IMG/VR virus record: IMGVR_UViG_3300044228_002718
Span: 1-62,788 of that record
Reading direction: 5' to 3' (one strand)
Length of the DNA: 62,788 nucleotides
Source: a virus
Lineage: Duplodnaviria > Caudoviricetes
The notes below the pieces were generated by a model. That model worked only from the letters and a program-made list of their open reading frames with translations. It had not been told where the DNA came from and ran no database searches. The number at the start of each line of letters is the position of its first letter. Position 1 is the first letter of the stretch. Positions 8,926-55,300 of this stretch are shown here, piece by piece. Made by a program: the position numbers and the translations under genes.

Positions 8926-8934
8926 AAATATTTC

Positions 8935-8963: not shown

Positions 8964-8969
8964 ATATGT

Positions 8970-11391: not shown

Positions 11392-11417
11392 CAAACGTTG
11401 GTGTTTTATTGTATAAT
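11388..11417 (+). promoter_or_regulatory. sigma70-type promoter upstream of ligase B
   Basis: AAAAATAGTTC-TTGACA-18-TATAAT. Confidence 0.8.
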
Positions 11418-11428
11418 ATACTTATATT

Positions 11429-34600: not shown

Positions 34601-37600
34601 ATCAACAATAAGACCAGTTGTAGATGTACCACCGTCTAAAGTATTTATATGAAAGAACTCATCATTGTTACTGTTATATTGAAGTTGAGCACCAAAGTTT
34701 GCACTTTCTCTAAGCCATAATCTTGCTTGATTATCAGAACCACTTGTGTCATTTAAAATTAATGTTGGGTCAGACTTACTAACTGTTATATCACCAGCAC
34801 CACTATAAGTGCCTATATTGGTTAAGTTTCTTGAACTGTCTATAACAGTAGTGCCACCCATCTGAATGTTGCCTGACCCAGTAATCCTAACTTTTTCTGT
34901 AGTTGAATCAGAAGCTCTTGTGTAGAACGATAAAGCAGAATCTACATTGTCGCTATTTTCTGGTGTCATTTCTATAATAGCTGCTTCTTTAGAAGTGCCG
35001 ACAGTATCAGTTCCTTTGAAGAATAGTCTTGGTCGTTTTGAAGTGCTATTTGCTGTGCTAGTGTTTTCTATGGTTATACCATCTACATCGCTTGAAGTGC
35101 TTACTTGAAGTTTCTTAGCAGGACTGGTTGTGCCAATACCTACGTTTCCAGCATTATCAAGTCGCATTTTTTCACTACCATCAATAGAAAAATTAATTAT
35201 TGAATTACTTACTTCATTATTATCATCAGCAAAGAAAGATAGCGTTCCTCCATTAGCTTGAATGTAACCATCAGAGTTATCATCAGAATCAAAAAAATGT
35301 ATTGATGGAGTAGAACGTGCTAGTAATAATTCACCTGTCGCTTCTAATGTACCTGTAACTTTTACACCACTTGATTGTGTTTCTAGTTTAGTTGTTCCAC
35401 CTGTTTGTATTAAAACATGATTTGCTGAATTAACTAATATATTTTCACCACTAGATGAAGCTATTGCTAAGTTATCGTTGCCATCGTCACCAATAGTGTG
35501 ACTATCACCAACAGTTATAGAGCCACCTATTGTTGCATTATTAATATTTGTTAAGTTTCTTGAAGTGTCTATGACGGTTGTGCCGCCTTGTTGAAAGTTT
35601 CCGTTTGCCAGTACAGCACCAAGATTTAAGTTTGCTGTGCTATATGTTATATTGCCTGTTGCGTCTGCTGTTGCAGTTGTAGTTCCTAATGCAAAATGGT
35701 CTCCACTTTCGTCCCATATAAATAGTGCATTATCTCCTGTTGAGCCTCTTTCTATAATTATACCTGAATCGTTTGCATTTGAAGAAGCTCCACTATTTAA
35801 TTCAAGTAATGTGTCTGTGAGTGTTGTGTTTGTAGAACTTACTGTAGTTGTGCTACCTTGTACGGTTAAACTTCCACCTACAGTTAAGTTATGACTAGTT
35901 GTAATATTACCGTCTGATTGAACGGTTAGTCTATTTGAACCTGCTGTTCCTAGTGTGATGCTTCCGCCAGATTCTTCATTCATTATATTGAAGACGTCAT
36001 TACTTCCACCAAATCCTACGTAAGCATGACGGTCACCACTTCTATTATATGATACATAAATTGGACCATCATCTGTTACATTTAGATAAGCGATTGTATC
36101 TGTTGTACCATTAATACTTAGTTGATTTGTAACTGAAACTGTTCCTCCAAAACTAGCATTTTGTGAGCTATTTATAGTTAAAGCAATTTGGTCGTTTGTT
36201 CTGAAGGACATTTCATTATTGGTATGGTCATAAAAAACTTCACCACTATTTGGGTCAGCATTATCACCAAAAGCCAGTACTCCATATCGCTTACCATTAC
36301 CTCTAAGAGTAATACCCACACCATCATCTGCTGAGTTACCACCTAAAATAACCAAATCTTCCGCAAAACTATAACCCTGTGCATCAGGGTCAGTAGTATT
36401 AATACCTACTTTGCCTGTGCCTGTTATACTACCTGTTACTGCTACACCCCCACTTGCAGTTGCTAATTTAGTGCTTCCACTATGATTAAGAGAAACTACT
36501 CCATCATCAATAACTATTGCATCTGCGGAGCCTTCTTTTAGTTTAAGCGCTCCTGTTCCATTATGATGAATAAATGAATGTGAGCCATCATGAAATAATA
36601 ACATATCTCCAGAAGTTGCACCAAATTTTAAATTTATATTATCTGCTAATGAAATGTCTTTTTGAAATGTAGTGTGTGCCGCACTACCATCTAATGTTAG
36701 ATATGCAGTAACTCCACCACTTCCATCGTCACATCTAAGAACTATATCTTTATCGTCAGCGGTATTTGTTATATAAAAATGACCTGTATTATTTGCTTGA
36801 AAAGTATCTGTGCCATTATGTGAAACATTCCAATCGTTACTTGCACCAACAGCCAGTACAGTATTATCTACTCTAACTCGTAAAGGTTTCACAGCATCTA
36901 TTACGTTAGCACCACCATCAAACTTCATATAATTAGTTACACTACCAGAGCCATCATCTGTTTGTATTAGAATATCTTTATCATCTGCATTATTTATCAA
37001 TATTAAATCGCCTGTTGAATTTTCTAATATTGAATGTGTGCCATTATGATAAATTTTTAAATCACCAGCACCTGAATTATCTCCTATTCTTAGCTCTACA
37101 TTATCAAACAACAAAGTATTTTTAGCGATTGTCATTCTGGAATGACTACCATCAATAGTTAGATATGGAGTTACTCCACCACTTCCGTCATCTGATTTAA
37201 AAATAACATCTTTATCATCTAAACTATTTTGTATAATTAAATCACCTGTTGCATTTTCAATAAGAGTATTAGTACCATTGTGATAAATAGACATATCGCC
37301 ATCACCACCAACTTGTAGTCTTACATTATCATCTGCTCTTAAATTTTTATGTAAATTTATTCTCTCATTAGTACCATCTACTCTAAGATATGTTGAGACT
37401 CCGCCAGAGCCATCATCTGTTTGTAGTGTTATATCTCCATCATTTGCATCATTTCTAATATTTAAATCACCTGTTGCATTTTCAATAAGAGTATTAGTAC
37501 CATTATGATAGATTTGTAAATCTTGACTAGCACCTGCCATAAATTTAGCGTTATCAGGAATACGAACATCAGTATTAAATATTGCCGCACCCCCTGCTGA

Positions 37601-39595: not shown

Positions 39596-39640
39596 ATATA
39601 TGTCCTAGTATTGCCTATATAGGCAAGATGAAGGGTCTAA

Positions 39641-41326
39641 TTAAAAAGACCCACCATCAATAATGTTTGACCATTGTGCAGCACCACTTGTATTCATAGA
39701 TAATAAGTATGTATGAGCAGTTGCGTCTCCACTTGGTTTTGTTAATCTAGTATATCCAGCATTTGCGGCTGCACCAATGAGTAAGTCACCGACAGCAGTT
39801 GCTGATATACCTTTAATTCTTAAGTTATCGCTGTTTACTTCTAAAGTAATATTATCGTCATTTACATTTAGAGTATTACCTGATTTACTTAGTGCGTCAC
39901 CTGCAGAAATACTTCCTGCACCTGAGAACTGTGTAAATGTTAAAGAAGTTGAGTCAAGAGTAATAGTATCATTTGTAGTTAATACATATCCATTATCTGC
40001 ATTACTTGTACCTTCTTCAACAAATACAAAAAGTCCTGCAGTAACCTTTGCACTAGTATTTGCGTCTGTTGACCTAGCTGGGGTTGAGCCAACTACATAA
40101 ATACCGTTTTCACTTCCAGTTGATTGGTCTTTAACAAGAACTCTATCACCATTTGCAAGAGTTACTCCATCAAGAGTATCTCCATTATTAAGAGCTGTTG
40201 CTATTGTAATATTAGCAGTTGTAGCCGCTCTTACAGAATCTTTAATATCAAGAGCTTGTTTTACTGCATCAACATATGCTTTAGTTGCTGCATCTTGGTC
40301 GCCTGTTGGGTCTGTAACGTTTACTATTCTTGATGTATTTACATCAACAGTTCCAGCACCATTTGGATTAAGTGAAACATTTCCATCAGTATTTAGTGAA
40401 GATATTTCGTTTCCATCTATTCTTAAATTATCTACATTTACTTGTGCTAAACCACTAAGTATTGTTTGAGTTGCTCCCAAACTAACTGATGTAGAACCAA
40501 TTGTTACGGCACTATTTACTAGCTCTGCATTTGCAACACCACCGTCTTTAATTGTGACTGCACCGCTGGATACTGCAAAGTTATCTGAACTAAATGACGC
40601 TACACCTTTATTAGAAGCTGTTGCATCTTCTGCTGCGATTGTGATTGTTGTTGTTGTTCCACTATCAGAAACAGTTGTGTCTATTCCTTCTCCCGCAGTA
40701 AATTGTAAGTTATCACTTGTTAAAGTAACAGCTACATCTGAGCCACTACTTGCTCCTACTGTTAAACTTGTTGAAACAGTAGCAAATGAAACTGAACCAG
40801 AACCATTTGTTACAAGTGCTTGTCCGTTTGAACCGTCTGAAGTTGGCAATGTATATGCACTGCTAACATTTAATTGTTTGTGTGTAATGATTTGTTCAGA
40901 AGAGTTAGAAGTCTTAAATGTTAAATAAGCATTATTACCCTCTGTAATTACTAGCGCTGTTGCAGAGTTATCTATAATATCAAATTCTGCAGCTGCGGCT
41001 GATAAGTCTATTGACCCACTTGCTGGAGTAATTGCTATATCACCAGAGCCTGATGAAATTGCATTTCCATTAAGTTGTAGATTATCAACAAGTAAATTAT
41101 CAATCTTACTATTTGAATCTACTATAATCGCTGAACTTGCTGTGAGTGTACCCGCCGTATGGTCGAGCATATTCATGAATACCTCACCACCAATTATATC
41201 ATTGTTTGAGCCATCACCAATAAATAACTTACTCGAGTTAAATGAATAAGCTAACTCACCTTGCGCTAATGCACTCGATGGGGCGGCATTACTGGTACTT
41301 CTTTTAATTTTTAACGTTTGTGCCAT
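39641..41326 (-). CDS. tail fibre / virion structural protein
   Basis: N-terminal IKRS...GELAYS; DAATKAYVD; DRVLVKDQ...ENGIY. Confidence 0.8.
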   Translation of the reverse strand: MAQTLKIKRSTSNAAPSSALAQGELAYSFNSSKLFIGDGSNNDIIGGEVFMNMLDHTAGTLTASSAIIVDSNSKIDNLLVDNLQLNGNAISSGSGDIAITPASGSIDLSAAAAEFDIIDNSATALVITEGNNAYLTFKTSNSSEQIITHKQLNVSSAYTLPTSDGSNGQALVTNGSGSVSFATVSTSLTVGASSGSDVAVTLTSDNLQFTAGEGIDTTVSDSGTTTTITIAAEDATASNKGVASFSSDNFAVSSGAVTIKDGGVANAELVNSAVTIGSTSVSLGATQTILSGLAQVNVDNLRIDGNEISSLNTDGNVSLNPNGAGTVDVNTSRIVNVTDPTGDQDAATKAYVDAVKQALDIKDSVRAATTANITIATALNNGDTLDGVTLANGDRVLVKDQSTGSENGIYVVGSTPARSTDANTSAKVTAGLFVFVEEGTSNADNGYVLTTNDTITLDSTSLTFTQFSGAGSISAGDALSKSGNTLNVNDDNITLEVNSDNLRIKGISATAVGDLLIGAAANAGYTRLTKPSGDATAHTYLLSMNTSGAAQWSNIIDGGSF

Positions 41327-41339
41327 TTTTTATTTTCCC

Positions 41340-41732
41340 TTAAAACAATCCTCCATCGAGATTGTCCATTGTGCCAGTTGCTTGAGCAAGTGGTACGAAT
41401 TCAAAATTATTAGAAGAAGTCTCTCTATATACTTTTAGCTGATCATCATCAGTGTCGTACCATAGGTCGCCTTCCTCTAAGTTGCTCCCGGAGGGAGCGT
41501 CTGTCCCTCTAAAAAATTGGTCTGCTAAAGTTTCAATAGCAGATTGAACAGTTCCTGTGGATACTGTTCCGTGTCCCTGCACTTGTATATTCGATGCAGT
41601 TCCACCAACAAGTGCTAAACTTGTTTCTACAGTGATAGGATTATCTGCCCTATCTATTGTTATATCTTGGCTGTTTTGTGTAACGTCTACAAAAAACTTA
41701 TTGTTTGTTACTTCTACTGAAATCTGACTCAT
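41340..41732 (-). CDS. virion structural protein (fibre-associated)
   Basis: EGDLWYDTDDDQLKVY; ends LDGGLF, similar to IDGGSF in the neighbour. Confidence 0.65.
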   Translation of the reverse strand: MSQISVEVTNNKFFVDVTQNSQDITIDRADNPITVETSLALVGGTASNIQVQGHGTVSTGTVQSAIETLADQFFRGTDAPSGSNLEEGDLWYDTDDDQLKVYRETSSNNFEFVPLAQATGTMDNLDGGLF

Positions 41733-42064
41733 CTTGTTACCTCAGGAGTTACAGTAACTTTTCCTTGTATTAATCTGGTTACCACTCCTCCGCTTGATTC
41801 CATTTCAACATCATACACATAAATTCCTTCTTCTATAGCTGCTGTTTGTGAATCAGTTGCTGAAATAGTTATTTTTCCAGCTGATGCATTACTTACAGAT
41901 GCTGTAAAAGAAAGAGCAATAGATGACGAGTCATGTGTAGACCTCATCTGTGACCGTGCACCATACCCAGTCAAATTAATTGCAGTACCGTCTTGCTTGA
42001 CAGTAATTTCTTTGCTGAAAGTTGTGCCTTGTTCTAATGTAAAATTGTGTATTCCTGCTGACAT
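41729..42064 (-). CDS. fibre collar/adaptor protein (T5 p132-like beta-sandwich)
   Basis: EQGTTF, INLTGY, YVYDVEM, RLIQGKVTVTPEVT; precedes the fibre genes. Confidence 0.65.
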   Translation of the reverse strand: MSAGIHNFTLEQGTTFSKEITVKQDGTAINLTGYGARSQMRSTHDSSSIALSFTASVSNASAGKITISATDSQTAAIEEGIYVYDVEMESSGGVVTRLIQGKVTVTPEVTR

Positions 42065-42087: not shown

Positions 42088-42116
42088 ATTATACCAAAAT
42101 TTTGACCTCGTGTCAA
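42088..42116 (-). promoter_or_regulatory. sigma70-type promoter for the fibre genes
   Basis: AAAAATATACC-TTGACA-17-TATAAT on the - strand. Confidence 0.85.
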
Positions 42117-42329: not shown

Positions 42330-42760
42330 TCTCCTCTCCTCTTAACCTGTAAAGACATCTCTCCTTGAAAGTAATTATCTTTTTCAAATATTAATCTCCA
42401 TATACCCGCTTGTGTTGCGGTTAAAACTAAACTAGAATCTGAGTTCATAGTAGTAAGTAAACTAGAGTTTGCATAAACTTTTGTTCCCTCTGGAACACCT
42501 GTGAGAGTAAATGTTTCATCTACTGCACGAATTCCATCAGAAGGTGATACAGATATGCTAAACTCAGATTTCTTTATGATTCCTGTTTCATCTGCATTTA
42601 TATAATAGTGATTAGTAGGAATTACATCTGAAGAAGTGGCATTTACCCAACTTCTTCCATTACCTGCCTCAGCGTCTTTTTGGGCCTGAGGTGCATCGCC
42701 CATTACAGTATAAAGTATTTCTTTAGTTGTACTGTCATAAAATACCGTTTGTGTACTCAT
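42326..42760 (-). CDS. tail-associated hypothetical protein
   Basis: Beta-rich; ATGA overlaps on both sides. Confidence 0.65.
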   Translation of the reverse strand: MSTQTVFYDSTTKEILYTVMGDAPQAQKDAEAGNGRSWVNATSSDVIPTNHYYINADETGIIKKSEFSISVSPSDGIRAVDETFTLTGVPEGTKVYANSSLLTTMNSDSSLVLTATQAGIWRLIFEKDNYFQGEMSLQVKRRGE

Positions 42761-43374
42761 ATTTTTACTCCTATATCTTCTTGGTCAAAAACTACATAAG
42801 CGTAGTATATTGTTCTTCCTGTATAAATTGTTCTTGTTACTGTTCTTGTTGAATCTAAAGCTCTCATTCCACACTCATAACTTAAAAAGTATATATAGTT
42901 GGAATCGACTTCAAAATCAAAACCTAATCCGATTTGATTATTTAATAATTTTTGTGCTGAAAAATCAAAGTTACCTTGTTGTACTATTCTACTACCAAAA
43001 GCATTGCTTAAATGTTTCATTGGTGGAAATGATATTTGTGCTCTATTACTTCCATCTAGGTCATCAGCATATGACCATCTTACAGCAACTAGCGGTGTAA
43101 AAGATTGATTGTGCGATACTCTACCTACTTGTGATGCTGTGTTATTATTTGTATAATAAGTTTTTGCGTCCTGTCCATATAATGAAGCTACTTTACCGTC
43201 TACTGTTTGATGTGCATTTATACTTCCTTGCCCATAAGCTATTGGTTTTAAATCAAACGCAGCCCTTGAATCAAATGCAAGAGCATTACTAGTAGTAACA
43301 ACATCATCTCCACTTTTAGATACAAATAAACCAAAATCACTTCCTCTTTTACCAACTAAAACTCTATTTGCCAT
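42757..43374 (-). CDS. tail-tip accessory protein (RVLVGK paralog)
   Basis: MANRVLVGKRGSDFGLFVSKSG...FDS. Confidence 0.65.
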   Translation of the reverse strand: MANRVLVGKRGSDFGLFVSKSGDDVVTTSNALAFDSRAAFDLKPIAYGQGSINAHQTVDGKVASLYGQDAKTYYTNNNTASQVGRVSHNQSFTPLVAVRWSYADDLDGSNRAQISFPPMKHLSNAFGSRIVQQGNFDFSAQKLLNNQIGLGFDFEVDSNYIYFLSYECGMRALDSTRTVTRTIYTGRTIYYAYVVFDQEDIGVKI

Positions 43375-43781
43375 TAGAACAACTCCTTTATGTTAATTAC
43401 TGTAAAACTAACAGTACTTGGATTAGTATGAGTTATTCCTCTTAAACTATTAGAAGCTGATGTAGTAATAGAAACAGTTCCTCCAGTAGTACTATTTGTT
43501 TCTATAAACCCTCCATCAGTTGGAACTGCTACACCTAAATTTTGTCCCAATGAACCTACTGTTTGATTAGAAGATGCATTTGAATTTTGTGACCCAGTTG
43601 TACTTGTATTTGTTCCACTTGTAAAACCAAACTGAAACATTCCTAAATCTGCTCCAGTGCTTTGATTTGTATTAAAAATTAATTCATCTTCACTAGCAGT
43701 AGTAACATCAACTGTTGGCTTACTAACAAAGACTCCAAAAACATTTGTATCTTTTTTTCCTACTAATACTCTATTTGCCAT
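43374..43781 (-). CDS. tail-tip accessory protein (RVLVGK paralog)
   Basis: MANRVLVGKKDTNVFGVFVSKP...IFNT. Confidence 0.65.
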   Translation of the reverse strand: MANRVLVGKKDTNVFGVFVSKPTVDVTTASEDELIFNTNQSTGADLGMFQFGFTSGTNTSTTGSQNSNASSNQTVGSLGQNLGVAVPTDGGFIETNSTTGGTVSITTSASNSLRGITHTNPSTVSFTVINIKELF

Positions 43782-43782
43782 A

Positions 43783-44523
43783 CTAAAATCCCATAAATGT
43801 TGAGTTCATAAATCCATAACCACAAGGAATCTTTAGTAAAGCTCCTCTTGCATTTGTGACAGGAAATGTAGCTTGGTCTGCTCCTGATAAAGTATAACTA
43901 CTACCAGTACTTACTGCAAAAGTATTACTTGTAAGAGAACCATCTCCTGCTCTAAATCCAAGTGTTAAATCTGTATTAGTAGTATATGCTGTAAGTCTAT
44001 TTGCTCTTGCTCCATGTTCTCCAGCAAATCCTTTGAAACCTACAGAGATTGCTCTTATTCTATTTCCTCCAGAGGCAGTAAAGTCTTTTTCTAGTAATAT
44101 TCCACCTGCGTGATATTCTTGTTCATCTAATATAGTATCATTCGAAGTTAGTTGAACATTCGCTCCATCACTTAGTCTGCTCAAATATGAAGTAGATGTT
44201 TTACTATAGTAGTCATCTTTATTTGTTCCAAACTTTCTTATCTCTTGTCTGTAATGTTTTTCAAAAAATAAATGTAGTGGTAAATATACAGTTCCATTTA
44301 CATTTGGTCTATTTGCCTCTCCGTTGTCTACAAAAAAGTTAAAACCTGAAGATGAACTCTGTGTTGAATGTATTATGCCATGTCTATTTTGTTTACTGTC
44401 AAATAGCATATCTTTTGACTCAGGTGCTGGAGAATCTGCAAAAGATACTCCAGGTTTTGTTACCTGTAATCCAAAATTTGAGCCATCAAGTTTTCCTACT
44501 CTTACTCTTTCGTCACCAGACAT
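43783..44523 (-). CDS. tail-tip accessory / receptor-binding candidate (RVRVGK paralog)
   Basis: ERVRVGKLDGSNFGLQVTKPG...LFDS. Confidence 0.6.
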   Translation of the reverse strand: MSGDERVRVGKLDGSNFGLQVTKPGVSFADSPAPESKDMLFDSKQNRHGIIHSTQSSSSGFNFFVDNGEANRPNVNGTVYLPLHLFFEKHYRQEIRKFGTNKDDYYSKTSTSYLSRLSDGANVQLTSNDTILDEQEYHAGGILLEKDFTASGGNRIRAISVGFKGFAGEHGARANRLTAYTTNTDLTLGFRAGDGSLTSNTFAVSTGSSYTLSGADQATFPVTNARGALLKIPCGYGFMNSTFMGF

Positions 44524-45512
44524 TTTATTCTCCTATTTGTGCTTTCTTGGTCATAGCATAAATATTGTTCACAATACCATGCTAAAAATTGTCTACTCTT
44601 TAGTTTATCCCACCACGATAAATCATCTATATGTCTATCTATATCGGGTAGATGTCTTACATCTTTTGTTATCCAATGATACTCAGGATAACCGTAGCTA
44701 ATTATTGGAACATCGTGTATCATGCACTCGACTCCTGCTGTACTGTTCTCAACAATAGCTACTTTTGTTTTTGGAAGTACATCATGTAAACTTTCTTTTC
44801 CGTATAAAACATTTATTCCGTCTTTTTTCCAAATCTCTATCTGTTTACGATACATCTCCCAGTTTCCCTCTTTTGTTATTTCTTCTTCGAGTGTAGGGTG
44901 TAGTTTGATAACTAAAGGATATTTTCCATATAGTTGCCATACTACTGCTATCAATTTTTCCCAATGACTACCAAAAGATTGTTTTAATACAGTATCATCT
45001 CCTGGCATTTGTCCCATAATCAAAACATGATTATTAGGAATACTTACATCTAGATCAACTGACTTAAGGTCATTTCTATCTGACCATTTGTTTTGTTTTT
45101 CTTTAATTAATTGTTTACTTGTTTTACGAAAGTTTGAAACATAACTTTCATATTGTGGTTTTTCGTAAGCTAAACTAGAGTAACTTGCATAACCTAACTC
45201 ATCTATTGAAAAATGATTAGGAGTTGGTCCTGTTGGCTTTAGTATCAAACATTGCTTTCCAAAATAATGCTCGTTTCTTTTTAGCTCAGAAACATTTGTA
45301 TGGTTATAGACATAGATTGCATCTTCTTCGTCTGTTATTCCAATTTTACCAAAACTTAGTTTTGCTAGTTTTCCATCAGCTTCTAGTGCTAAATGTGGAC
45401 TAATCTGTATATCTGCTCCTAAATCGTAAAAACATTTAAGGACTCTTTGATACATTGTAGACCAGTTGCCCGTAATTCTTTTATATTTAAAACCACAAAA
45501 TTTAACTTTCAT
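44502..45512 (-). CDS. KpsS/Capsule_synth-like glycosyltransferase
   Basis: LIMGQMPGDDTV, VIKLHP, ENSTAGVECMIHDVPIISYG..Y, the C-terminal pattern of capsule-modification GTs; start re-called at ATG 45512. Confidence 0.7.
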   Translation of the reverse strand: MKVKFCGFKYKRITGNWSTMYQRVLKCFYDLGADIQISPHLALEADGKLAKLSFGKIGITDEEDAIYVYNHTNVSELKRNEHYFGKQCLILKPTGPTPNHFSIDELGYASYSSLAYEKPQYESYVSNFRKTSKQLIKEKQNKWSDRNDLKSVDLDVSIPNNHVLIMGQMPGDDTVLKQSFGSHWEKLIAVVWQLYGKYPLVIKLHPTLEEEITKEGNWEMYRKQIEIWKKDGINVLYGKESLHDVLPKTKVAIVENSTAGVECMIHDVPIISYGYPEYHWITKDVRHLPDIDRHIDDLSWWDKLKSRQFLAWYCEQYLCYDQESTNRRIKCLVTKE

Positions 45513-46128
45513 TAAACCACCCACTAATTGCTATTCGTTGATGTGTAGCATACTGTGATACTTCACTTACATAGTGGGATAGTCCACCATCTCCAAGTTC
45601 CATTATTACTAATGAATTAAATTTTGGATAGACTACTTCTATTCCTTCATCTCTTGAGATGTGTAACATTCCACCGTATTCTGGCTTCCAGTTCTTTGTT
45701 AAATTAAATATAAATGCAATACCTCTTTGTTCATCAGTATGTGAACTTAAAAAATCACCTCTATCATAAATACTTACAAATGATTCATATTTATAAGGGT
45801 TTTCTAAAAAAGTATTATTCTTTAACCACTCAACAAATTCATTATTTAAGTAGTCATTGAACTTACATTCATAACACTTGCATGTATCTACATGCTTCAT
45901 GCTTCTTTTAAATTTGTAAGAAAAATTTCCTTCTTGAAAACTTCTCTCTACAGCTTCATCTAATTTTCTCTTTGCATTTAAACCTGTGAGTGTATGTTGC
46001 ATATACACTGGTTTTTCATCAAAGTATTTGTACGCATAAGTCCACCAATTATCAGGGGTCTTATATATTTCGTCATGCAGTTCTTCTGCTAGTTCCTGAG
46101 GAAGAAAGTCCTCGTATATTTTTATCAT
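45502..46128 (-). CDS. 2OG-Fe(II) oxygenase, Tpa1/OGFOD1-like (prolyl hydroxylase family)
   Basis: YDRGDFLSSHTD (HxD), IAFIFNLTKNWKPEYGGMLH, PKFNSLVI, HYVSEV, RIAISGW. Confidence 0.88.
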   Translation of the reverse strand: MIKIYEDFLPQELAEELHDEIYKTPDNWWTYAYKYFDEKPVYMQHTLTGLNAKRKLDEAVERSFQEGNFSYKFKRSMKHVDTCKCYECKFNDYLNNEFVEWLKNNTFLENPYKYESFVSIYDRGDFLSSHTDEQRGIAFIFNLTKNWKPEYGGMLHISRDEGIEVVYPKFNSLVIMELGDGGLSHYVSEVSQYATHQRIAISGWFNES

Positions 46129-46129
46129 T

Positions 46130-49100
46130 TTAATCCTTAATTATTATTCTACTATTTACACCATCAAAAATTATATTACCATTGTTACTACCAACACCAC
46201 CTCCAGATACTACTGAAGTTATTTCTGCAAAATCTGAATTTGCTGTTCCACTTCCATCATACTCAAAACTTCTTAAACTTGGTAAGTGAAAGAATACATC
46301 TCCTGCAATTGGATTATTTCCTGAGCCTCTTAAGTTACTAATTGCAGTATGCATTTGGGAGCCAGTTGGTACTGCTCCTGCAGCCAGACCTGAAGTTGTA
46401 GCATCAAATGCTATAGCTTTTCCAGCTGCTCCTTGCGGACCTGTTGGTCCTACGCTACCTGTTGGACCTTGTGGTCCTTGTGTTCCTACTCCACCTTGTG
46501 GGCCTGTTGGACCTGCTGCACCTGTTGGTCCTCCTGGACCTTGTGGACCTACTCCGCCTTGTGGACCTGTTGGACCTGCTGCACCTGTTGGGCCTCCAGG
46601 ACCTTGTGGACCTACTGGGCCTCCAGGACCTTGTGGGCCTGTTGGACCTCCACTACCTGTTGGACCTGCTGGGCCTACTGGACCTGCAGGACCTGCTCCT
46701 CCTGTTGGACCTGCCGCACCTGTTGGACCTGCTGGTCCTTGTGGGCCTGGTGTTGTTCCTGCTGGACCTGCTGGGCCAGGTGCACCTGCTGGACCTTGCG
46801 GTCCTTGTGGCCCGGGAGTAGTTCCTGCCGGACCTGTTGGGCCTGCTGCACCTGCGGGCCCTACTGGACCTTGCGGTCCTTGTGTTCCTGCTGCACCTGC
46901 TGGACCTGCTGCACCTGTTGGACCTGCTGCTCCTCCAGGACCTTGTGGACCTTGTGGTCCTTGTGGTCCTGCTGCACCTGTCGGCCCTTGTGCACCTGCG
47001 GGACCTCCTGGGCCTTGTGGACCTGCTCCTCCGCTTGGTCCTGTTGGGCCTCTAGTTCCTGGCGCACCTCCAGGTCCTTGTGGACCTGCTGGGCCTGTTG
47101 CTCCTTGTGGTCCTGTTGGTCCTACGGCACCTCCAGGTCCTTGTGGACCTTGTGGTCCTTGTGGGCCTGATGGACCTGTTGGTCCTTCTCCAGATTCTGA
47201 TTGTCCTATTACTCCATTACCTGTTGGGTGAAAGTCTGAAAATAAAGTTATTACTTCATTTGAACTTGGTGTTCTTGTTGTTTTTCTTCTAGTTCTAATC
47301 CAAAAATACTTTGTTGAAGCTGCTCCAAGAGATAACTCAAAAGAAGTTGTTTGGTCTAAAGTTCTTAATAAACTTCTAGAAGAGTTGGAAGCTGAATCAC
47401 TTGACCATATCTCTGTACTATCACTTGGCTCATGAAAGTTTGTATGGTTTGCCCAGTTAAGTATAATATCTCCAGGTTTTGCATTTGCTGAAGTACTATT
47501 TGTTGCAGTTAAGCTTCCTGGGCTTCCTGGTTTATCAAGTTGATAATTACTTCCTGTACCATCAACTCTTGTTTCTTGTTTTCTTTGATGAGTAACTATA
47601 TAGATAGTGTCATCATATTCTCTTGCTTTTACTTGTACATTACAATTTGCTTGGAAAGTTAAATTTTCTATTCTAAATCTTTTATTTTCAAATCCAAAAG
47701 GTTCGTAATTAACTGATATAACTTGACCTGCTTTTAGTAAAAGACCTCTTGGTCCTAAAGTAAATGTTATTTCTTTACTGTATCTACTTTGTATTAATTC
47801 TTTTTCTACCAAGATTCTAGCATTGTAGTAGTTAATAATTCCTGTAACAACAGAGTTTCCTGTTTTAACAACATTTCTATCGGCTTTTAAGAAGTCCGAA
47901 TTAAAGAAAGTTACCGACCTTGCTCCCCAGTTATTTTGAGGGTCAAAGATACTCGACTTAATAGTATTTCGGCTATTTCTAGAAGAATTATCGACCAGTG
48001 ATATACTACCAATGATATCTGAATTATCAATATACTCGGGATTAGACTGGATTCCATTAGTTACACTTGCGACTGGTGCGTCTGTTTGTGTTTCTAAATC
48101 GAGAACATATTTTCCATTTGAATATGAAAGTATGCCATTAAAATGGGCTAACATCAAGTTTACATTGTCAAATAAAGATTTATTTGTATCAATAATATGA
48201 CTTGTTTGATGTCTTGTTACCCATATCTGGTCATGACTCTCCCAACCCATATATCTCCAGTATTTAATAAAGTCTGCGTCATAAAGTGAATAAGTTAATG
48301 CTCCAACTTTAGCTATTGCTTTTGTTGAGTCTCCTGTTCCACTTACTTTTGTTAAATTTATAGCTGTTCCATCTGTTTGTGTAGCAATAAATTTAGTACC
48401 GTTTGTAAAACTGGTATTTGTATGAGTTGGCTCTGTTGATACGTGTCCATCACTTTCAACTTCATAGTATCTAAGTACTCCACCACTTATATTATAAATT
48501 AAACTACCTGCATCGTAAGATACGTAATCATAGTATCTTCTAATAAACTGACCAGAACATTTATGGAAAGTAACAGAAGGTAATCCTGAACTATTTACAT
48601 CTGATACAACTGATTTTACAACACCTGACCACAGATGGTTTCCATTACTATCTGTATATTTATAAATTGCTCCTGCTGTTGGTGTAGTAGAAAATGCACT
48701 ACCAAATATTATTGTAACATCAGAGCGAGTATCACAAGCTTCTGCGGTACTTATAAAACTTGATAAGTCAATATCTGTATCAATATCTAAATCTTTTCCG
48801 TATCTATCATCAGTTAGATAGTCTAAAAGCTGTATTGCAGGATTTATTGTTGCTCTTTTATCTTGTCCAATACCTACTATTGTAAACTTTGAACTATTAC
48901 TTAGTTGTGTTGCTGGTCTTGTTGTTTTAATTCTACTATCACTTGCAGTGAAAGACTGTATTTCAAGTTCTTCTATAATTTCTCCAGAATCACCTCTTAA
49001 TTGAAAAACTCCTCCTGTGAGTGCATCATTACTTGTTAAGTTTGATATTGATGTAAACCCACCTAAGAAAAAGCTATTTACTTTTGTCAATTTTACATGA

Positions 49101-51664
49101 GAAGCATTATTTTGCAAAAGAGTTGCTTGAGCAACACTTATAAAAGTATCATCTAGCAGTACAGTATCTGATGTCCAAGTACCTCTCATAACTTTATCTT
49201 GTAGACTTCTTATTCTTCTTGCGTCACTTGTATTGCTTGGAAAAGAGTCAGTAAATAAGAAAGTATACAATGGAGTTTCTGAAGCTCCATATCCTGCCTT
49301 CAATAAGGTTGCATCAGAATTACTAAAAGTTAATTTTGCTGCTCCACTACTGCTACCTAGTAGGGTTGAGACTGCAGTAGGATTCTTACCATATAAAGGT
49401 AATGCAGTATTGCTATCAACAGGGCTGAAATTATAGGTAACCATATGCCAAAAATTCGACCCACTTTTTAGTCTTAATTCAGTAAAACTACCTAGCGTTG
49501 GTTTTGAATCGAGTATAAATCTGTAATGAGTTGAAGCTCTTGAGGTATGAAAAAGGTATTTATGTAAAATTCTAAAATCTTTTCCATCAGATTCTGTTGT
49601 TGATACTGTTCCATCAGCTTTTAAGAATTTATATGTGCCTGAGTCTTTAACTTGTACTTTTACTGTATCCCCATTCTTAAAGTTTGTATGTGCTGCGTTT
49701 GTCTCTGTTGGATTTGGTTTGTATGTTCCATCATAGTTGTAAGATTCTACAACTCTACCTTTTATAACATAGTCTAAATCAGGTATAGAAGTTTGTTCTG
49801 CACTAAGTTGAGTTGCGACAACCATGTAAGAGGTATCAAATAATCTATGAGCAGGTGACCAGTAAGGTAAGTCATCTGTATAATAATCTACTTGTCTTTT
49901 AAACTTTTGTCCTGCAGAAGCATTTGCTCTTGTTGTTAATAAGTTTGAAGCCACTTGATCTGACCTTCCCGCAAAAAATGTAAATGACATATTATGAGGA
50001 CTACTAATAGTTCCAAACTCCTCATGTTGCATACCAAAACCTGCTGAACTTGCATCTATCGTTTGACTATTTACTGCACTTTGAGTTAATTCTCCATACT
50101 GTCTTTCTAAGTAAGCTATTTGTGCTGCTAATCTATCTACTCTTTCAAAGTCTCCTAAACTTTCTGCTATTATTAATTCTTCGTAAAGATCAGCAATTTG
50201 TTGTTGTTGAGTGGTTAAAGATCCATCTGAATTATCTCCTGTTCCACCTAATGTGTCTCCTTTATCTGCTCTTCCATAACATTGTAGTGTTGCATCGTCT
50301 CTTGTACTTGTTGCTGAACTATTATCTGCTCCCCTTAAATTAGAGTCTGCTAAATCAGTACAAATAAGTGGTGCGTCATCAATATATAAGTTTAGTAGTC
50401 CATGTATTTCTCCTTCTGCTATTGCATCAATAAAATATACTAATTTACTATCTTCCTCTGCTGTATCAGCAAATATTGGCGCTCCCTCTATTCTTTGCAC
50501 TCCGTAAACAACAGGAAGTGTTTTAGCTTGTAAGAATATATTTATATTTACATTATTATCTACTGCTTCCTGATATTCTCTATATGCATCTTTCTTTTGT
50601 CCTAGCCAACTCCCAAGCCAACCACCTCTTCTTACTCTTTCTTTTCTATATTTAGTTACATAGGTTTTATAAACTGCTTGTTGTGATAGTGATGTTTCTG
50701 AGTGCATAAATCCAAGGTCATATGCATATTGTCGTCTTACTGCAACATCTGGTTGAGGATTTCCTTGTCCATCAAGTGCTCTGTGCACTTCATCTGTCAT
50801 TAATCTTCCTTGAACATGTGTAAAATCTCCCCAATGACTTGTGAGATTCCATTTTACTTGAGTTTTATTTATTGATTCTTGTATGTTACAAGAAGAGATT
50901 ATTCCTTTAAATACAAGTACAGAAGTGTTTCCTATAACTGCTCCTGTTTCTGGATTTATAAATATTTTGTGGATAAATACTTCTCTATTTAAAAAAGAAG
51001 GATTCGTTGCATTAGTTCCTCTTTCAAGAGTAGCTGATTTTAATTCTTCAGAATCTAATTCTATTGTTACTGCAACAGAAGTATCTGTCGGTACTGAACT
51101 ATCATCTGAATCATTACCTGTTGTTAGTAGTGTTATTGTTTTGTTTGCATCGCCAAATGCTGAAATTACAAAAGTTTCTGAGGAGTTGCCAGTAGAAAAG
51201 TTTCCAGAGTTTTTAGTAATTTTAATTTTATCGCCTTCACGAAAACCTTCTTCAACTAAGTCTACAACATTTCCATTTAGTACAGATGTTGAAACTGTAA
51301 AAGTATTACTACTAAAACTACCTGAAACAGAACTAGCGATACCTAAACTTTCTGCAGATAAAGTAAGAGACATACTTGTGGCTCTAGCAGTAATTGTTTC
51401 TGAATAACTTCCTATTGCCTCTATTCTATTTGCTCTATAAATTTGTGAGCCGTTAGAGTTTCCATCATGGTCTACTGAGCCATCATCAAAAGAAAAATCT
51501 CTACTGCCATCTGTCAGATAAACATATCTATTTGCATTAGTTCTATACTTTCCATCACTATCAGGCGCAAAAGGTCTTTCAAATTTAATTAAGTGTGCAT
51601 ATTCAAACGGTTCATTATTAATTAAGGCCGTTTCTATGTTTGAATTAATACTTCTTTTTGCCAT
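46130..51664 (-). CDS. central tail-tip / baseplate hub protein (T5 pb3 / lambda J-like) with FnIII and collagen domains
   Basis: Follows Dit; [29 protein letters not shown]...YG; FnIII-like PGSPGSL...YFWIR; Gly-X-Y tract. Confidence 0.88.
46415..47185 (-). repeat. collagen-like (Gly-X-Y)85 tract
   Basis: Counted from the translation: 85 triplets, 59 with Pro at X, 20 GPQ, 16 GPT, two one-residue interruptions (GTTP). Confidence 0.95.
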
Positions 51665-52380
51665 TATGGTTGTGCTTCCTCTAGTTGTAAACTGAATTGA
51701 AATAAATTGTTGTTTCCTAAATCATACTCTATTACATCTGAGGTCATAATAACTCTTATTAATACATTTTCAAAGTTAATAGTAGAATCATTAGAGACAG
51801 CTTTCTCTATTGGTGGTGAAGTGTAAATTATTCTTTCTCCACTATTTGGTTGAGAGCCTGAAAGATAGTTTGAATTAGTTAGTACTTTTATAATCTTATA
51901 TGCTTTTAAATGATTAGAATTACTACTATCAGTAAAAGTTATCATATCTCCTGGTCTTAAACCTTCTGAAGCATTATCAGAACTAAATCCATCGGCAGTA
52001 AAACTTCTTGCTCCTGCACTTATAGCTCCATCAACGCTTACAGTTCCAGTAAATCCTGAAGTTCTTGTATCTGCATATTGAGGTAAAGATATAAAGAAAG
52101 GTCTAATTTTTCCATACTCTAAAAGAAAGTTATGAATAGGTTCAAACTCATCTCGTGTCATTGGATTATAGGAAATGTTAATATTCCACTTTTGATTTGC
52201 AATCGCACGAGTAATCACACGACCACTATTAGTTCTTGAAATTGCTACAGGTCTTTGACTTGCAAATCTTACTGATGCAAATCCTGGTCCTGTAACTCTT
52301 GTTCCTGTTGCGCTTCCGTCCTCTGCTATTCCAAAGTTAGGGTCTGGTAATCTGTTTGCAAAACTACTAAACTGTGCCAT
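51664..52380 (-). CDS. distal tail protein (T5 pb9-like)
   Basis: LPDP, GPGFASV, SLPQY; lies between TMP and hub. Confidence 0.82.
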
Positions 52381-55300
52381 TATGTATCTCCTCCACTACT
52401 TCCGTATGCCATGGTATCTACATTCTCTAAAAAGTTTTCTCCATTTTGATTGGCTGCTTGTCTTATCATTTTAATTATATTTCCTTGTTGATTCATAAGT
52501 ACATCTTCAACACCTGCTGAGTCTAGTGCTGAAATAGAGAAGTTTACATTCATAGTTCCTCCTCCTAAAGCATAATTAGGAGTTACATCTATATCTGAAG
52601 AAGCAGATACAATCTCAGGTCCTCTTTCTCCAACCACTATTCCACCATCTGAGTAAGATTTTCTACCCATTGCTCCACCTGGGAATGATGCTCCTGCTCC
52701 ACCTATATCTTGTCCTGTTGTTCTGCCACCTCTTAAATATGCGAGTTCACTTGCAGTTGCTCTTTGAGACACATCAACTGCGCTTCCTCTATTTCCAATA
52801 TTAAGATTTGTTTGAGGAGTTTCTATATTACTTGAAGTACTTTGATACTTAGTTTTTGCTATAATTGCTAACTGAGCCGCACCTAATGCAGCCATCATTG
52901 CAGAAAGTGCTATATTAAATGGTGGCGGTGCTGAAGCAAGTGCTTGAACTATAGCAGCTGAAGTATTAACAACTGTTTGAGCCATTTGAAGTTTCTTATT
53001 TGTTTCAAAAGACTTTCTTGCTATGGCATCTTTCTTTGCTTCCATAGCTCTTATTTTATTTAAAGATTCAGCAGATTTACCATCTCTTTTCTTTTCTGCC
53101 GCTATTTGATTGTCTATTTCTGCAACTTGTTGTCTTGTTGAAGCCTGTAATACCATACTAACTTGTGCAAGTATATTTCCTACAGCTTGAAGTCCTTCAG
53201 CAGATTTAAGACCCTCCATTGACATAATATTAAATGCATCAGCAATACCTAGTATTCCAGTAGTTGCAGCAGCTACAAACTCTCCCTCTGGCCCAAGTCC
53301 TTTTAGTTGTTCAATCATTGGGTTTAAAATACCTTCTGTTGCTTTTAGTTTTTCTTGAGCACTTCCACCAACTGCTTCTGTAAGTAAGTTACCTGTTGTT
53401 GCATCAAATGTTGCCTCTTGACGTTTTTCAAAAACTCCTCTACCTGCTGCTGCTCCTATTCTGTCAATTGTTGTTCCTGTTTGTTCTGCGGTTGCAAATG
53501 CTCCAAACATTGTGCTTCTAGCTCCAGTTATAGTTCTGCTTAGAGCATTTCGAGCGCTTTGTGTTTGTGCTAGCAGTAATTCTTCCTGCAGTTGAATCAA
53601 TCTTACTCTTTCATCAGGATCTAAATTTTTATTGGCGTTTATTTTTTCTATAGCTATTTTCTTTTCTAGGCCTAGTATTTCTAATTTAAGTTTGAGTTCT
53701 TCTCTCGCAGCGTTAATTGTAAGTTCTGCTTGTTTTTTGGCATTTTCTACAGCTTGTTCTCCAGTTAGTGTAAAAGTACCTCTTTTTCTAAGAGTTTCTA
53801 ATTTTTGATTTAGAGTAAATAAAGCTCCCTCTGCCTGTGCTGCTGATTTTGCTGCTGATATCAAAGCTGAACTCAGCTTTTTCTCTTCAGCAAGTTTATT
53901 TGCTTCGTCTGATAACTCTCTGAATTGCTTAGCAAGTGCTTCAATTCTAGTTGTTGTGCCTCCAGCACCATCATCTATTTCCTCAAATAAATTTTTTGTA
54001 GTTATTCCAAACTTCGCTAGTGTTGCAATCTCTTTATCGCTAATCTCTCCTAGTAACTGTTCTATAGCTTTTTCTTCGCCTAGTTGAGTTGATAAATTAA
54101 CAAAACTATTTACTATAGAATCTACTTGATCTGCTAAAACTGTAAACTCATTTTTCTTTTTCAATCTATTTAAAAACTCACTAAATACTTTATCGGTTTG
54201 TAATAATCCTTTTCCAAAACTTTGAATCTCTCCTTCAGCACCTTGAACACCACTATTAAGTTGATTAACAATAGACTCTATTACTCTAAGAACTTCTGAT
54301 GATTTTACTCCTGAGTCTATTAACAGTTGTATATATTCTGTAAAACCTGAATTTGGGCCAAAGAAATCATTTACAACTATAGCTCCTATTTCTGCTTCTT
54401 CTTTAATTTGTCTGATTCCCTCTGCTGCTTCTTCAAAAATTTTAGTAACATCAGATTCATTAATAGTTTCTACAAATTTTTCTGTTGGTTTGAAGAAAAA
54501 ATCTACTGTGGCTTTACCAAAATTTCCAATAGCTTCTATACTGTCTCCTATAAAACTACCTATACCATCAAAAACAGTTTTTACACCTGTAGGTATTATA
54601 AATCCTGCATCATATAATTCTTTTATTACCATAGAAACTCTTTTCATTCCTAGTTCAAATTTACTTATCTTTTTTTCTTGTCCTAATTCATTAATTGCGG
54701 CATTTACTGCTGCGGTTAATTCATCAAATGCTCCAGCTGCAAAAGTAGTATTTTGTCTAAGTTCAAATAAAGTTTCTGTTATAGCATCAAATCCGTCTTT
54801 TTGATTTCTTAATAACTGTGCTGTTTCTTTTACACCTATATTAAAATCCTTTAAGTTATCATCAAACTCTTTTACTGTTGTTTGAAGTTTTTGAATTCCA
54901 CTATCAGCATCTTTTGAACTTCTAAATACATTAATTAAAAATTCTACTAGCAGTCCTCCAATAAATATAATTTGTCCTGCTAATGGAATAGCATTTACTA
55001 AGGCGGCTCCAAATAATCTTATACCACCTGCTGCTAGTTTAGAGCCAACTTTTACTTGTGTTCCAAAATCTTTAAATCTTCTTTGATTGCCTTTTCCAGT
55101 TAGATTTCCTAACTTTCTTTCTGTAAGATTTACTTCTCCTCTTAGTTTACCAAATGCTTTATTAGCCTCTTTAAAACCTCCAAGTCCACCAGTTGCCCCA
55201 ATAGCTACAACTCCTTTTGAAAGTTGACCTTCTTCTCTAGCAGCTCTGTTTGCTATCATAGCCTTTTGTTGAGAAGCTGCTCTTCCTGCTTCTGCTGCTT

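Follow-up and report, generated by a model that had tools for sequence, protein, structure and literature searches.

Candidate collagen-tailoring enzymes encoded directly behind the collagen-extended tail hub of an uncultured T5-like siphophage

Why should a phage place genes for two modifying enzymes inside the operon that builds its tail tip? This question is raised by the 62.8-kb IMG/VR virus record IMGVR_UViG_3300044228_002718, whose completeness is estimated at 64%; the whole stretch of 62,788 nucleotides (nt) was analysed and is called the window hereafter. [quoted passage not shown] Because the profile of the N-terminal part of the hub matches T5 pb3, and because of the gene content of the window, the source is judged to be an uncultured marine T5-like siphophage with a pb3 hub prolonged by a collagen fibre. 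We regard it as just short of an even call that the oxygenase and the transferase are accessory tailoring enzymes of this fibre, and the evidence for and against that reading is described below.

Hydroxylation together with glycosylation of collagen is known from animals and giant viruses, while only glycosylation is known in the spore-surface collagens of Firmicutes. To our knowledge, phage collagen-like fibres have so far been treated as unmodified. Collagen-like segments themselves are described as well known in phage and prophage tail fibres, e.g. the prophage collagens of Escherichia coli O157 (in an available excerpt of PMC3368898). An excerpt of another report mentions an Ofd1-like prolyl dihydroxylase in the virion proteome of a cyanomyovirus and leaves it unexplained (PMC12801897), and a paper on the Baltic virome, likewise available in part, says that what viruses do with prolyl 4-hydroxylase (P4H) "remains cryptic" (PMC9301287). 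In the literature retrieved on phage collagen hydroxylation and glycosylation and on KpsC-type transferases, no collagen modification system of a tailed phage is described, nor is a Kdo-type transferase next to a phage fibre gene.

Results

Collagen-like region and C-terminal domain of the hub

The hub gene (46130–51664, minus strand, as are all genes of the tail region given here) encodes 1844 amino acids (aa). A profile made from the N-terminal 1490 aa and two relatives matches T5 pb3 (Protein Data Bank (PDB) code 7zhj) with E = 1e-113. The pb3 homology is accompanied by a pb9-type gene upstream, an open reading frame (ORF) in the tape-measure position and a T5-type tail tube gene, and the protein is placed among the pb3-type hubs, as the initial annotation of this DNA had implied.

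The collagen-like region (hub aa 1494–1750; 46415–47185) consists of 85 Gly-X-Y triplets in three runs (aa 1494–1616, 41 triplets; aa 1618–1638, 7 triplets; aa 1640–1750, 37 triplets), which are interrupted by two single-residue breaks. Pro occupies the X position in 59 of the 85 triplets and the Y position in only 2, GPT and GPQ occur 16 and 20 times, respectively, and the region is nearly free of charge, its charged residues including one Arg and one Lys. The triplet number, the Pro counts, the GPT count and the near absence of charge had been given in the initial annotation, and a script reproduced them exactly. The Pfam Collagen family (PF01391) matches the hub with E = 5e-20, and therefore the repeat is not a chance feature. 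The G+C content of 46001–48000, where the collagen lies, is 0.449, as against 0.325–0.336 in the flanking intervals. From 85 triplets, the fibre would be roughly 70 nm long.

The C-terminal end of the hub should be noted. The hub had been thought to end in collagen; the triplets are present, but the protein closes with a non-collagen C-terminal domain (CTD) of 94 aa (aa 1751–1844; 46133–46414), which is homologous in all 12 aligned collagen genes located beside a transferase; every collagen gene found next to the transferase shares it. The CTD of the window is 88–92% identical at the protein level to those of two relatives, loci L002 and L003, the surrounding cassette being about 60% identical as protein, whereas the DNA identity to these loci across the collagen and CTD stretch is only about 69–70% and that to L165 is 80% over 342 nt including the CTD. 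Since a protein identity of 88–92% stands against a DNA identity of only 69–80%, the comparison indicates that the CTD is likely to be under unusually strong purifying selection; recent lateral exchange of the CTD was considered and rejected for the same low DNA identity. No Pfam family matches the CTD, and the Atlas search returned only viral hypothetical clusters. Collagen folding is described as nucleated at the C-terminus in the available part of PMC11923368. The CTD is probably a trimerisation or nucleation knob and the distal tip of the fibre, and its conservation is in keeping with a domain that nucleates folding and/or binds the receptor as the tip. A complex prediction with three CTD copies and the transferase scored 0.00 (mark, 0.32) and is uninformative either way.

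Arrangement of the genes

The ATG codon of the oxygenase gene (45502–46128, 208 aa) lies one base past the hub stop codon. The transferase ORF can be read from a GTG codon (44502–45524, 340 aa) or from an ATG codon at 45512 (44502–45512, 336 aa). The ATG appears the more likely start, because the 99%-identical homologue P0001 has 336 aa and the Atlas form starts there. Depending on the start, the 5' end of the transferase gene overlaps the 3' end of the oxygenase gene by 11–23 nt, and its other end overlaps the gene of a 246-aa protein (43783–44523) by 22 nt. The tight order of hub, oxygenase, transferase and tail-tip gene, with the one-base gap and the overlaps, is confirmed as first described. 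Between hub and transferase, the minus strand is free of terminator-like sites.

Assignment of the oxygenase

The oxygenase is a single-domain protein that matches the Pfam families 2OG-FeII_Oxy_4 (PF13661, 1.1e-16) and Oxy_3 (PF13640, 3.7e-11). Only two solved relatives are found by sequence, human OGFOD1 (4nhx, 2.1e-9) and Pseudomonas PPHD (2.3e-3). The iron triad HxD...H (H130, D132 and H185) and the 2OG-binding R198 are invariant in 19 oxygenase sequences, and they align with the corresponding residues of OGFOD1 and PPHD. The AlphaFold2 (AF2) model, with a predicted local distance difference test (pLDDT) score of 94.2, was compared by VIA with 48,161 PDB representative chains. The best match is OGFOD1 (Z = 19.7, root-mean-square deviation (rmsd) 2.2, 169 aa, 27% identity), followed by Tpa1 (Z = 19.2), PPHD (19.0) and Trichoplax PHD (19.0), and protein prolyl hydroxylases (among them OGFOD1, Tpa1, PPHD, PHDs and vCPH) account for 8 of the 12 best matches. 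The hydroxylases of the collagen type all have the same fold but rank below the OGFOD1/PHD group: chlorovirus vCPH, a viral collagen-type prolyl hydroxylase according to its PDB title, has a Z of 16.1, Chlamydomonas P4H 14.2, LH3 and mimivirus L230 12.9 each, and P3H1 and C-P4H-II 12.2 each. The sugar-nucleoside oxygenases PasI and PolD reach 18.4, within about 1.3 Z of the best prolyl hydroxylase.

Judging from the model and the conserved residues, the protein is a predicted 2OG enzyme with an intact site and of the protein prolyl-hydroxylase type (OGFOD1/Tpa1/PHD-like), its substrate not being fixed by the fold. The subfamily call is not exclusive, because PasI and PolD lie within about one Z unit. 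An assignment as a Kdo hydroxylase of the KdoO type was rejected, since no Kdo-hydroxylase family of Pfam matches at E ≤ 0.01 and KdoO is not among the 50 best fold matches, though a function similar to that of KdoO could still be served.

The residues 79–88 of the oxygenase (45865–45894, minus strand) form a cluster, H79-x3-C83-x-C85-x2-C88, that is invariant in 12 close phage homologues and absent from four distant ones (P0137–P0140). The four residues may bind a structural zinc, a feature not on record for OGFOD1/PHD enzymes. With the oxygenase as a single query, no close relatives were found in viral contigs; a tblastn search of GenBank phages gave one unannotated match (27% identity), and the 8-kb region matched none of the GenBank phages by megablast.

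Assignment of the transferase

The Pfam family Capsule_synth (PF05159) matches the transferase with 27.5 bits (cut-off 20, E = 2.7e-6), which places it in this family, and the same family is annotated in most of the homologues. A transferase profile matched only KpsC in the PDB, and weakly (E = 0.023). With the AF2 model (pLDDT 91.6) as the query of VIA-align, ranks 1–14 are all occupied by retaining Kdo transferases (KpsC, WbbB and KrkA, Z = 17.1–11.8). The best of them is KpsC 6mgc (Z = 17.1, rmsd 3.7, 262 aa), and WbbB and KrkA reach 15.9 and 12.1, respectively, whereas ordinary glycosyltransferase-B (GT-B) enzymes score 11.7 at most; the model has the modified GT-B architecture of the former. 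The top match in Foldseek is also KpsC (8fuw, E = 2.2e-8).

In a profile of 22 sequences, the stretch G-Q172-M-P-G-D176 aligns with D-Q-T-F-N-D160 of KpsC, which contains the QXXXD motif, and the D160N and D160C mutant chains of KpsC differ exactly at the column of D176. Likewise, K-L-H209-P210 aligns with K-V-H-P of KpsC, which contains the HP motif. Q172, D176, H209 and P210 are invariant in the 22 sequences, down to 40% identity. Y73, N74 and H75 are conserved in the N-domain; the general acid/base residues of KpsC are His94 and Glu66. In the available text of PMC10148158, the Asp in QXXXD is the nucleophile of a double displacement via a covalent Kdo adduct, and the HP motif is common to transferases that depend on cytidine monophosphate (CMP)-sugars.

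The alignment with the N-terminal module of KpsC extends from end to end (model residues 6–328), and the protein is a bare catalytic module without the C-terminal membrane-anchoring region that excerpts on KpsC and KrkA describe. We take it, from its model, to be a single-module KpsC-like (GT107-like) homologue of retaining ulosonic-acid (Kdo-type) transferases. The first assignments of both enzymes are thus upheld by fold comparison and catalytic motifs, with one change of label: the transferase had been called KpsS-like, which is right as to the Kdo-transferase family, and it is closer to KpsC (GT107). The donor need not be CMP-Kdo, because a KpsC homologue that transfers pseudaminic acid exists according to the accessible part of PMC12887879; the same part names phosphatidylglycerol, poly-Kdo, O-antigen and capsule as the acceptors of the Kdo-transferase relatives. 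Genes for the synthesis of Kdo or nonulosonic acid were not seen among 20 other proteins of the window that were scanned.

All of the 222 transferase homologues come from metagenomes. A tblastn search of GenBank phages gave no match, the search of 185,579 species genomes gave only two, both in contigs of metagenome-assembled genomes, and the nearest Atlas clusters are 63–100% viral, so that the family looks essentially viral. Fused homologues of more than 595 aa were not found, which is weak evidence.

Gene neighbourhood of the transferase

We collected 162 transferase loci from scans of IMG/VR, of JGI metagenomes and of the species genomes; together with the window, the 163 sequences form 76 clusters at 90% identity. 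The tree was a quick IQ-TREE calculation, a collagen or CTD gene within 1.5 kb was counted as adjacent, and the CTD was detected by a local hidden Markov model (HMM) on the fetched loci. One clade of 42 clusters, with a value of 92 in the Shimodaira–Hasegawa-like approximate likelihood ratio test (SH-aLRT), contains the window and every collagen-adjacent transferase. Of these clusters, 34 are evaluable and 8 are not, owing to contig ends. A collagen and/or CTD gene lies within 1.5 kb of the transferase in 29 of the 34, usually with a gap of less than 100 nt; outside the clade, the transferase is collagen-adjacent in none of the 28 evaluable clusters.

The oxygenase lies between the two genes in 14 of the 29 collagen-adjacent clusters and is missing from 15. 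In 4 of these 15, the arrangement is convergent, the collagen and CTD gene being on the opposite strand with its 3' end 18–41 nt from that of the transferase gene. The adjacency holds even at a transferase identity of about 44%, in three carrier architectures and with the strand inverted. The N-terminal parts of the carriers belong to one hub family (12 clusters), to short all-collagen fibres (L004/L010 and L008) or to a 920-aa type (L186). A greater diversity, with many unrelated carrier proteins, was considered and rejected, because single-linkage BLAST joins 12 of them into the one hub family and leaves about three architectures plus the convergent arrangement.

Five evaluable clusters of the clade have no adjacent collagen gene, and four of them encode collagen elsewhere in the locus or contig. 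The collagen genes of L019 and L026/27 are 5–9 kb away, the triplets of L036 are found in a 2637-aa gene that ends 1.6 kb upstream, and on the contig of L029/30 about 26 kb separate the transferase from a 726-aa collagen gene; L021 is the remaining one.

In the convergent cases, the transferase gene is the last gene of the operon for ribonucleotide reductase (RNR), where that operon meets the tail operon. This end of the RNR operon serves as a second site, which holds the oxygenase and/or the transferase in L179, L185, L187 and L197 as well as in L245–L252, L254 and L021. At the RNR/tail junction of the window itself (about 29.0–29.3 kb), there is neither an oxygenase nor a transferase.

Two loci show further features. 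In L023 (1–1005) and L024, an oxygenase (32% identity) and a transferase stand behind a 335-aa ORF fragment with repeated Y-V-Y-D-T-T-Y-V motifs; we take the C-terminus of the L023 fragment to resemble a C-terminal domain of the gliding or type IX secretion system (T9SS) type of Bacteroidota, which presumably hints at a Bacteroidota host or origin. In L002, a 196-aa ORF (8822–9409) with the motif V-L-D-V-G-S-G is inserted between the collagen hub and the oxygenase. By eye, the motif looks like the glycine-rich motif of class I S-adenosylmethionine (SAM)-dependent methyltransferases, and the product may be a third tailoring enzyme in the cassette.

Gene neighbourhood of the oxygenase and of the hub

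The linkage was also counted from the other genes. A 12-row alignment of the oxygenase retrieved 40 IMG/VR loci in 25 clusters, 20 of which are evaluable and 5 are not. The oxygenase directly follows a collagen and CTD gene in 8 of the 20, 4 with and 4 without the transferase, the latter being L253, L256 (=L115), L261–264 and L266–268. The other 12 are not collagen-adjacent: one group stands at the end of the RNR operon (L245–252, and L254 with a transferase), and the rest are distant relatives (32–39% identity) on contigs of 50–200 kb. From the two sets of clusters it follows that each enzyme alone, and both together, occur at the 3' end of collagen and CTD genes. The oxygenase and the transferase are not a fixed pair, and each occurs without the other.

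In the third count, a profile of the hub N-terminal part was used to scan IMG/VR, and local HMMs for both enzymes were applied to the best 80 of 171 loci, to which all the hub numbers in this report refer. The transferase occurs in none of the 80 and the oxygenase in one (L115). A complete hub and at least 1.7 kb downstream, the definition of an evaluable locus, are available in 36, not deduplicated, and hubs with at least 20 triplets were counted as collagen-bearing. Neither enzyme accompanies any of the 28 collagen-free pb3-type hubs; among the 8 collagen-bearing hubs, the oxygenase is found once and the transferase not at all.

These counts bear on the association that the initial annotation had expected. 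Its idea that the enzymes would disappear with the collagen agrees with the 28 collagen-free hubs. Co-occurrence itself stands for the most part: it is supported by the 29 clusters of the transferase clade and by 4 further clusters with the oxygenase only, but seen from the side of the hub, collagen is mostly found without the enzymes. The picture of one fixed modification system has to be abandoned, since each enzyme occurs alone. In addition, kin of the transferase abound in T4-like loci without collagen, and there is a second site in the RNR operon.

Composition and inheritance of the collagen block

We compared the collagen composition of 26 clusters with at least 25 triplets, 12 with and 14 without the oxygenase. 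The median of Pro at X per triplet is 0.59 with the oxygenase and 0.32 without it (Mann-Whitney p = 0.0003), and that of charged residues is 0.08 and 0.38, respectively (p = 0.0009), both p values being uncorrected for kinship. Pro at X amounts to at least 0.38 of the triplets in every oxygenase-associated collagen, and falls below 0.38 in 7 of the 14 transferase-only collagens. The collagen of L115/L256, where the oxygenase occurs without the transferase, has 102 triplets with 19 GPP, Pro at X of 0.64 and Pro at Y of 0.29, and the other oxygenase-only collagens have Pro at X of 0.38–0.46. That the oxygenase goes with Pro-rich and charge-poor collagen is a suggestive pattern only.

Over the stretch that begins with the collagen and closes with the transferase gene, the DNA of the window is 68–71% identical to those of L002 and L169, whereas the N-terminal part of the hub has no DNA similarity between the window and these two loci. 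The hub bodies closest to that of the window (L014 and L018, 34–37% identity) carry more distant CTDs and enzymes. Therefore, collagen, CTD, oxygenase and transferase travel as a block.

Other genes of the window

Directly upstream of the hub gene lies the gene of a distal tail protein of the T5 pb9 type (51664–52380, minus; PF21425, 9e-7; phrog_1302, 1.6e-15), and upstream of it is the ORF in the tape-measure position (52380–56573, minus; 1397 aa). Downstream of the transferase, the product of the 246-aa tail-tip gene has no Pfam or PHROG match. It shares an N-terminal motif of about 40 residues, M-x-x-R-V-x-V-G-K..., with the products of the following two genes, of 135 and 205 aa (42757–44523 for the three genes, minus), and the motif recurs in the post-transferase genes of L002 and L003. 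The three proteins may be side-fibre or tip proteins with a common anchoring module. Two larger proteins of 2640 and 561 aa (31673–41326, minus) start with another common motif, M-x-Q-T-L-K-[LI]-K-R-S ... G-E-L-A; they look like two fibres with one common attachment module, and N-termini related to theirs are also encoded behind the transferase in several loci. In the short gap before a 111-aa gene (41729–42064), the minus strand has a perfect sigma-70 consensus at 42088–42116 (TTGACA and TATAAT with a spacer of 17 nt, and a TG upstream), which is the sole 12/12 match in the 12 kb scanned.

The replication genes of the window encode a split NAD-dependent ligase, a DnaB-like helicase, a primase, a family A polymerase and a flap endonuclease; a class I RNR and the T5-type tail tube protein are also encoded. 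The ligase (9260–12199, plus) is apparently split into a 309-aa ORF with the adenylation and OB domains and a separate 256-aa ORF with the BRCT domain, 1.2 kb downstream of the former, with a 129-aa ORF between them.

Discussion

Proposed tailoring of the fibre

If the two enzymes act on the fibre, the following mechanism can be drawn. The trimeric pb3-type hub would be prolonged into a central fibre of about 70 nm, made of the 85 collagen triplets and capped by the CTD. The OGFOD1/PHD-like oxygenase would hydroxylate prolines in the still unfolded Gly-Pro-Y chains, where Pro is found almost only at X. The KpsC-like transferase would draw a CMP-activated ulosonic acid from the host pool, most likely CMP-Kdo and less likely a pseudaminic-acid-type sugar, and would pass the sugar via a covalent adduct at Asp176 to hydroxyl groups of the fibre, either those of Thr in GPT triplets or those within the CTD. 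This would make the fibre more stable and/or coat it with negatively charged sugar. The analysis shows the sequence features, the enzyme folds with their catalytic residues and the gene linkage in relatives, whereas what each enzyme acts on, where and with which stereochemistry Pro is hydroxylated, which sugar is used and what the phage gains are inferred; 3-hydroxylation at X, a Thr–Kdo linkage and stabilisation of the helix are details that can only be inferred.

In its most specific form, the proposal is that marine phages recruited a GT107-type transferase as a protein O-glycosyltransferase that coats their own collagen fibre with an acidic eight- or nine-carbon sugar, with OGFOD1-like hydroxylation of X prolines in Gly-Pro-Thr and Gly-Pro-Gln in addition, either or both stabilising the nearly charge-free helix. 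In this complete form it is unlikely, and still substantial enough to be stated. In collagen peptides of the vent worm Riftia, the (Gly-Pro-Thr)n helix is said to be stable if Thr is glycosylated or if Pro at the X position is 4-hydroxylated; either enzyme sufficing alone would fit these results.

This reading is favoured by the identities of the two enzymes, by the linkage of each of them to collagen and CTD genes, by their absence beside collagen-free hubs, by the inheritance as a block, by the Pro at X of the oxygenase-associated collagens, by the missing membrane anchor of the transferase and by the SgtA precedent described below. Several observations weigh against a role in tailoring the fibre. 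Seven of the eight collagen-bearing hubs have neither enzyme within 1.7–8.5 kb downstream, and neither was found when five collagen-hub contigs (35–42 kb, 53–87% complete) were searched whole. The enzymes are missing from most collagen hubs and are therefore accessory. One of these five, L103, has a hub collagen that is Pro-rich and charge-poor, yet no enzyme accompanies it. Nor does the composition decide the matter: the median of Thr per triplet, 0.32 with and 0.35 without the oxygenase, does not differ significantly, and the correlation of the oxygenase with Pro and charge was rejected as a significant one, since the tree needs only two state changes, equal to two independent pairs. In L019, the oxygenase and the transferase follow a 2579-aa fibre protein that is free of collagen. 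About 34 clusters outside the clade are in contigs of T4-like myoviruses with no collagen in the fetched locus, where the transferase gene either follows gp23 and precedes UvsW or is found together with the genes for RNR, RNase H and PhoH. As all the collagen-adjacent transferases belong to one clade, the linkage may go back to a single origin and have been retained by inheritance. The position of the oxygenase and/or the transferase at the end of the RNR operon in relatives suits an early, host-directed role, and the characterised relatives KpsS, KpsC, WbbB and KrkA all use lipid-linked or glycan acceptors and none uses a protein, according to the available excerpts on these enzymes.

Alternative explanations

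The main rival is remodelling of the host surface. The transferase would add a Kdo-type sugar to intermediates of the host lipopolysaccharide (LPS) or capsule and thereby mask the receptor of the fibre tip, either for superinfection exclusion or to spare the progeny from debris, and the oxygenase would take part in this glycan pathway or work on its own. The transferase gene would travel with the collagen and the CTD since receptor binding and masking must match. We consider this unlikely on the whole, though a possibility to be taken seriously. In T5, llp, the gene of a receptor-blocking lipoprotein, adjoins the gene for receptor binding, and among the 2OG oxygenases KdoO has Kdo as its substrate for hydroxylation. 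The transferase varies together with the CTD and not with the hub body, as the block homology extends only from the collagen to the transferase, and its adjacency to the 3' (CTD) end persists even when the genes are on opposite strands. The enzymes are last in the RNR operon, an early operon, in several relatives, and the T4-like paralogues are found among early or replication genes. All the characterised members of the family build LPS or capsule glycans, as far as the accessible portions of the literature describe them, and PasI and PolD, which act on high-carbon sugar nucleosides, are only about 1.3 Z below the best prolyl hydroxylase in the fold comparison (18.4 vs 19.7).

The oxygenase fits this explanation less well. 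It follows the collagen and CTD gene alone in four transferase-free clusters, which is hard to reconcile with a role in a Kdo pathway, and its closest relatives both by sequence and by fold are protein prolyl hydroxylases, with no Kdo-hydroxylase family found at the threshold given above. As for the transferase, the membrane-association region reported for KpsC and KrkA in the excerpts at hand is missing, and the gene is usually a member of the late tail operon, its reading frame overlapping those of its neighbours.

Alternatively, the two genes may be unrelated accessory genes at a permissive, recombination-prone site, the oxygenase acting on uS12, EF-Tu or another host protein and the transferase on another acceptor, with the position explained by mobilisation via the repetitive collagen DNA and by descent. 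The best oxygenase matches are indeed hydroxylases of a ribosomal protein and of EF-Tu, 12 of the 20 evaluable oxygenase clusters are not collagen-adjacent, and there are two alternative sites, behind the collagen and at the RNR/tail junction, at which each enzyme is also found without the other. In addition, the genes of the transferase, the oxygenase and a 726-aa collagen protein are scattered over one contig, at distances of about 16 kb and about 10 kb, and the single clade of collagen-adjacent transferases suits descent. Chance parking is nevertheless unlikely, because two unrelated enzyme families, singly and together, adjoin the 3' end of collagen and CTD genes, because the adjacency of the transferase survives at about 44% identity, three carrier architectures and strand inversion, and because neither enzyme occurs beside the 28 collagen-free hubs of the same family. 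Finally, genes behind tail-fibre genes often encode chaperones, and the position directly behind the fibre gene would suit a non-catalytic assembly factor or chaperone of the collagen fibre with an incidental oxygenase, but this is very improbable for a protein in which Q172/D176, H209/P210 and many other residues of the active-site region do not vary among 22 sequences with identities as low as 40%, which is unexpected if catalysis had been lost.

Comparison with known systems

For tailoring of the hub fibre, the closest proven analogue is SgtA/BclA3 of Clostridioides difficile. The gene of SgtA lies just upstream of bclA3, and SgtA adds O-linked N-acetylglucosamine (GlcNAc) to Thr in the collagen GPT repeats, as stated in the available part of PMC7157674. 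As in this pair, and as in the exosporium collagens of the Bacillus BclA type, a GPT-rich collagen adjoins a glycosyltransferase gene in the window. Contrarily, SgtA is a GT-A-type transferase using uridine diphosphate-GlcNAc whereas the phage enzyme is KpsC-like, of the type that uses CMP-ulosonic acids, and BclA3 is a spore surface protein without a described oxygenase partner whereas the phage carrier is a tail hub.

The combination of a 2OG oxygenase and a glycosyltransferase on collagen, with hydroxylation followed by glycosylation, resembles mimivirus L230/R699 and animal LH3/COLGALT1. Mimivirus L230 is bifunctional. The mimivirus and animal enzymes hydroxylate Lys and add glucose or galactose to hydroxylysine, whereas the collagen of the window has a single Lys. 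The phage oxygenase is also distant from the lysyl hydroxylase L230 (6ax6) and from LH3 (8zgc), with a Z of only 12.9 compared with that for OGFOD1, and the transferase family differs too.

The individual enzymes can be placed in the same manner. The transferase shares the modified GT-B fold, QXXXD, HP and PF05159 with KpsC/KpsS (GT107), WbbB (GT99) and KrkA (GT140), the Z values being those given above; it differs in being only 13–16% identical to them, a single 336-aa module with neither a second module nor a membrane-anchoring C-terminus, and virus-encoded. The oxygenase shares the double-stranded beta-helix, the iron triad and the 2OG-binding Arg with OGFOD1/Tpa1/Ofd1, PHD/PPHD and vCPH, and is 27% identical to the catalytic domain of OGFOD1. 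However, OGFOD1 and Tpa1 have two domains, whereas the phage oxygenase is a single 208-aa domain with the H79/Cys cluster, and collagen is not among the known substrates of OGFOD1, Tpa1, PHD and PPHD, namely ribosomal protein S23, EF-Tu and HIF.

Among phages, glycosylation in mycobacteriophages targets the capsid and tail-tube extensions, not collagen, and involves other transferase families. Mycobacteriophage glycosyltransferases reportedly glycosylate virion proteins, as Freeman et al. are said to have described in 2023. What is new here is the siphophage hub as a collagen carrier and the GT107-like transferase beside it.

Biological significance

If the transferase does tailor the hub fibre, it would be the first enzyme in the Kdo-transferase families to act on a protein, and the Kdo-transferase fold would gain a protein acceptor. 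With the oxygenase, it would make up a pathway of collagen maturation, the first for a tailed phage, and the many orphan genes for 2OG oxygenases or "P4H" in marine viruses would gain a concrete role. Small soluble enzymes for the tailoring of recombinant bacterial collagens would also become available. If the transferase remodels host glycans instead, a receptor-masking function would be genetically tied to the receptor-binding tip. Tailoring of the hub collagen would mean that tailed phages chemically finish their own host-recognition organelle.

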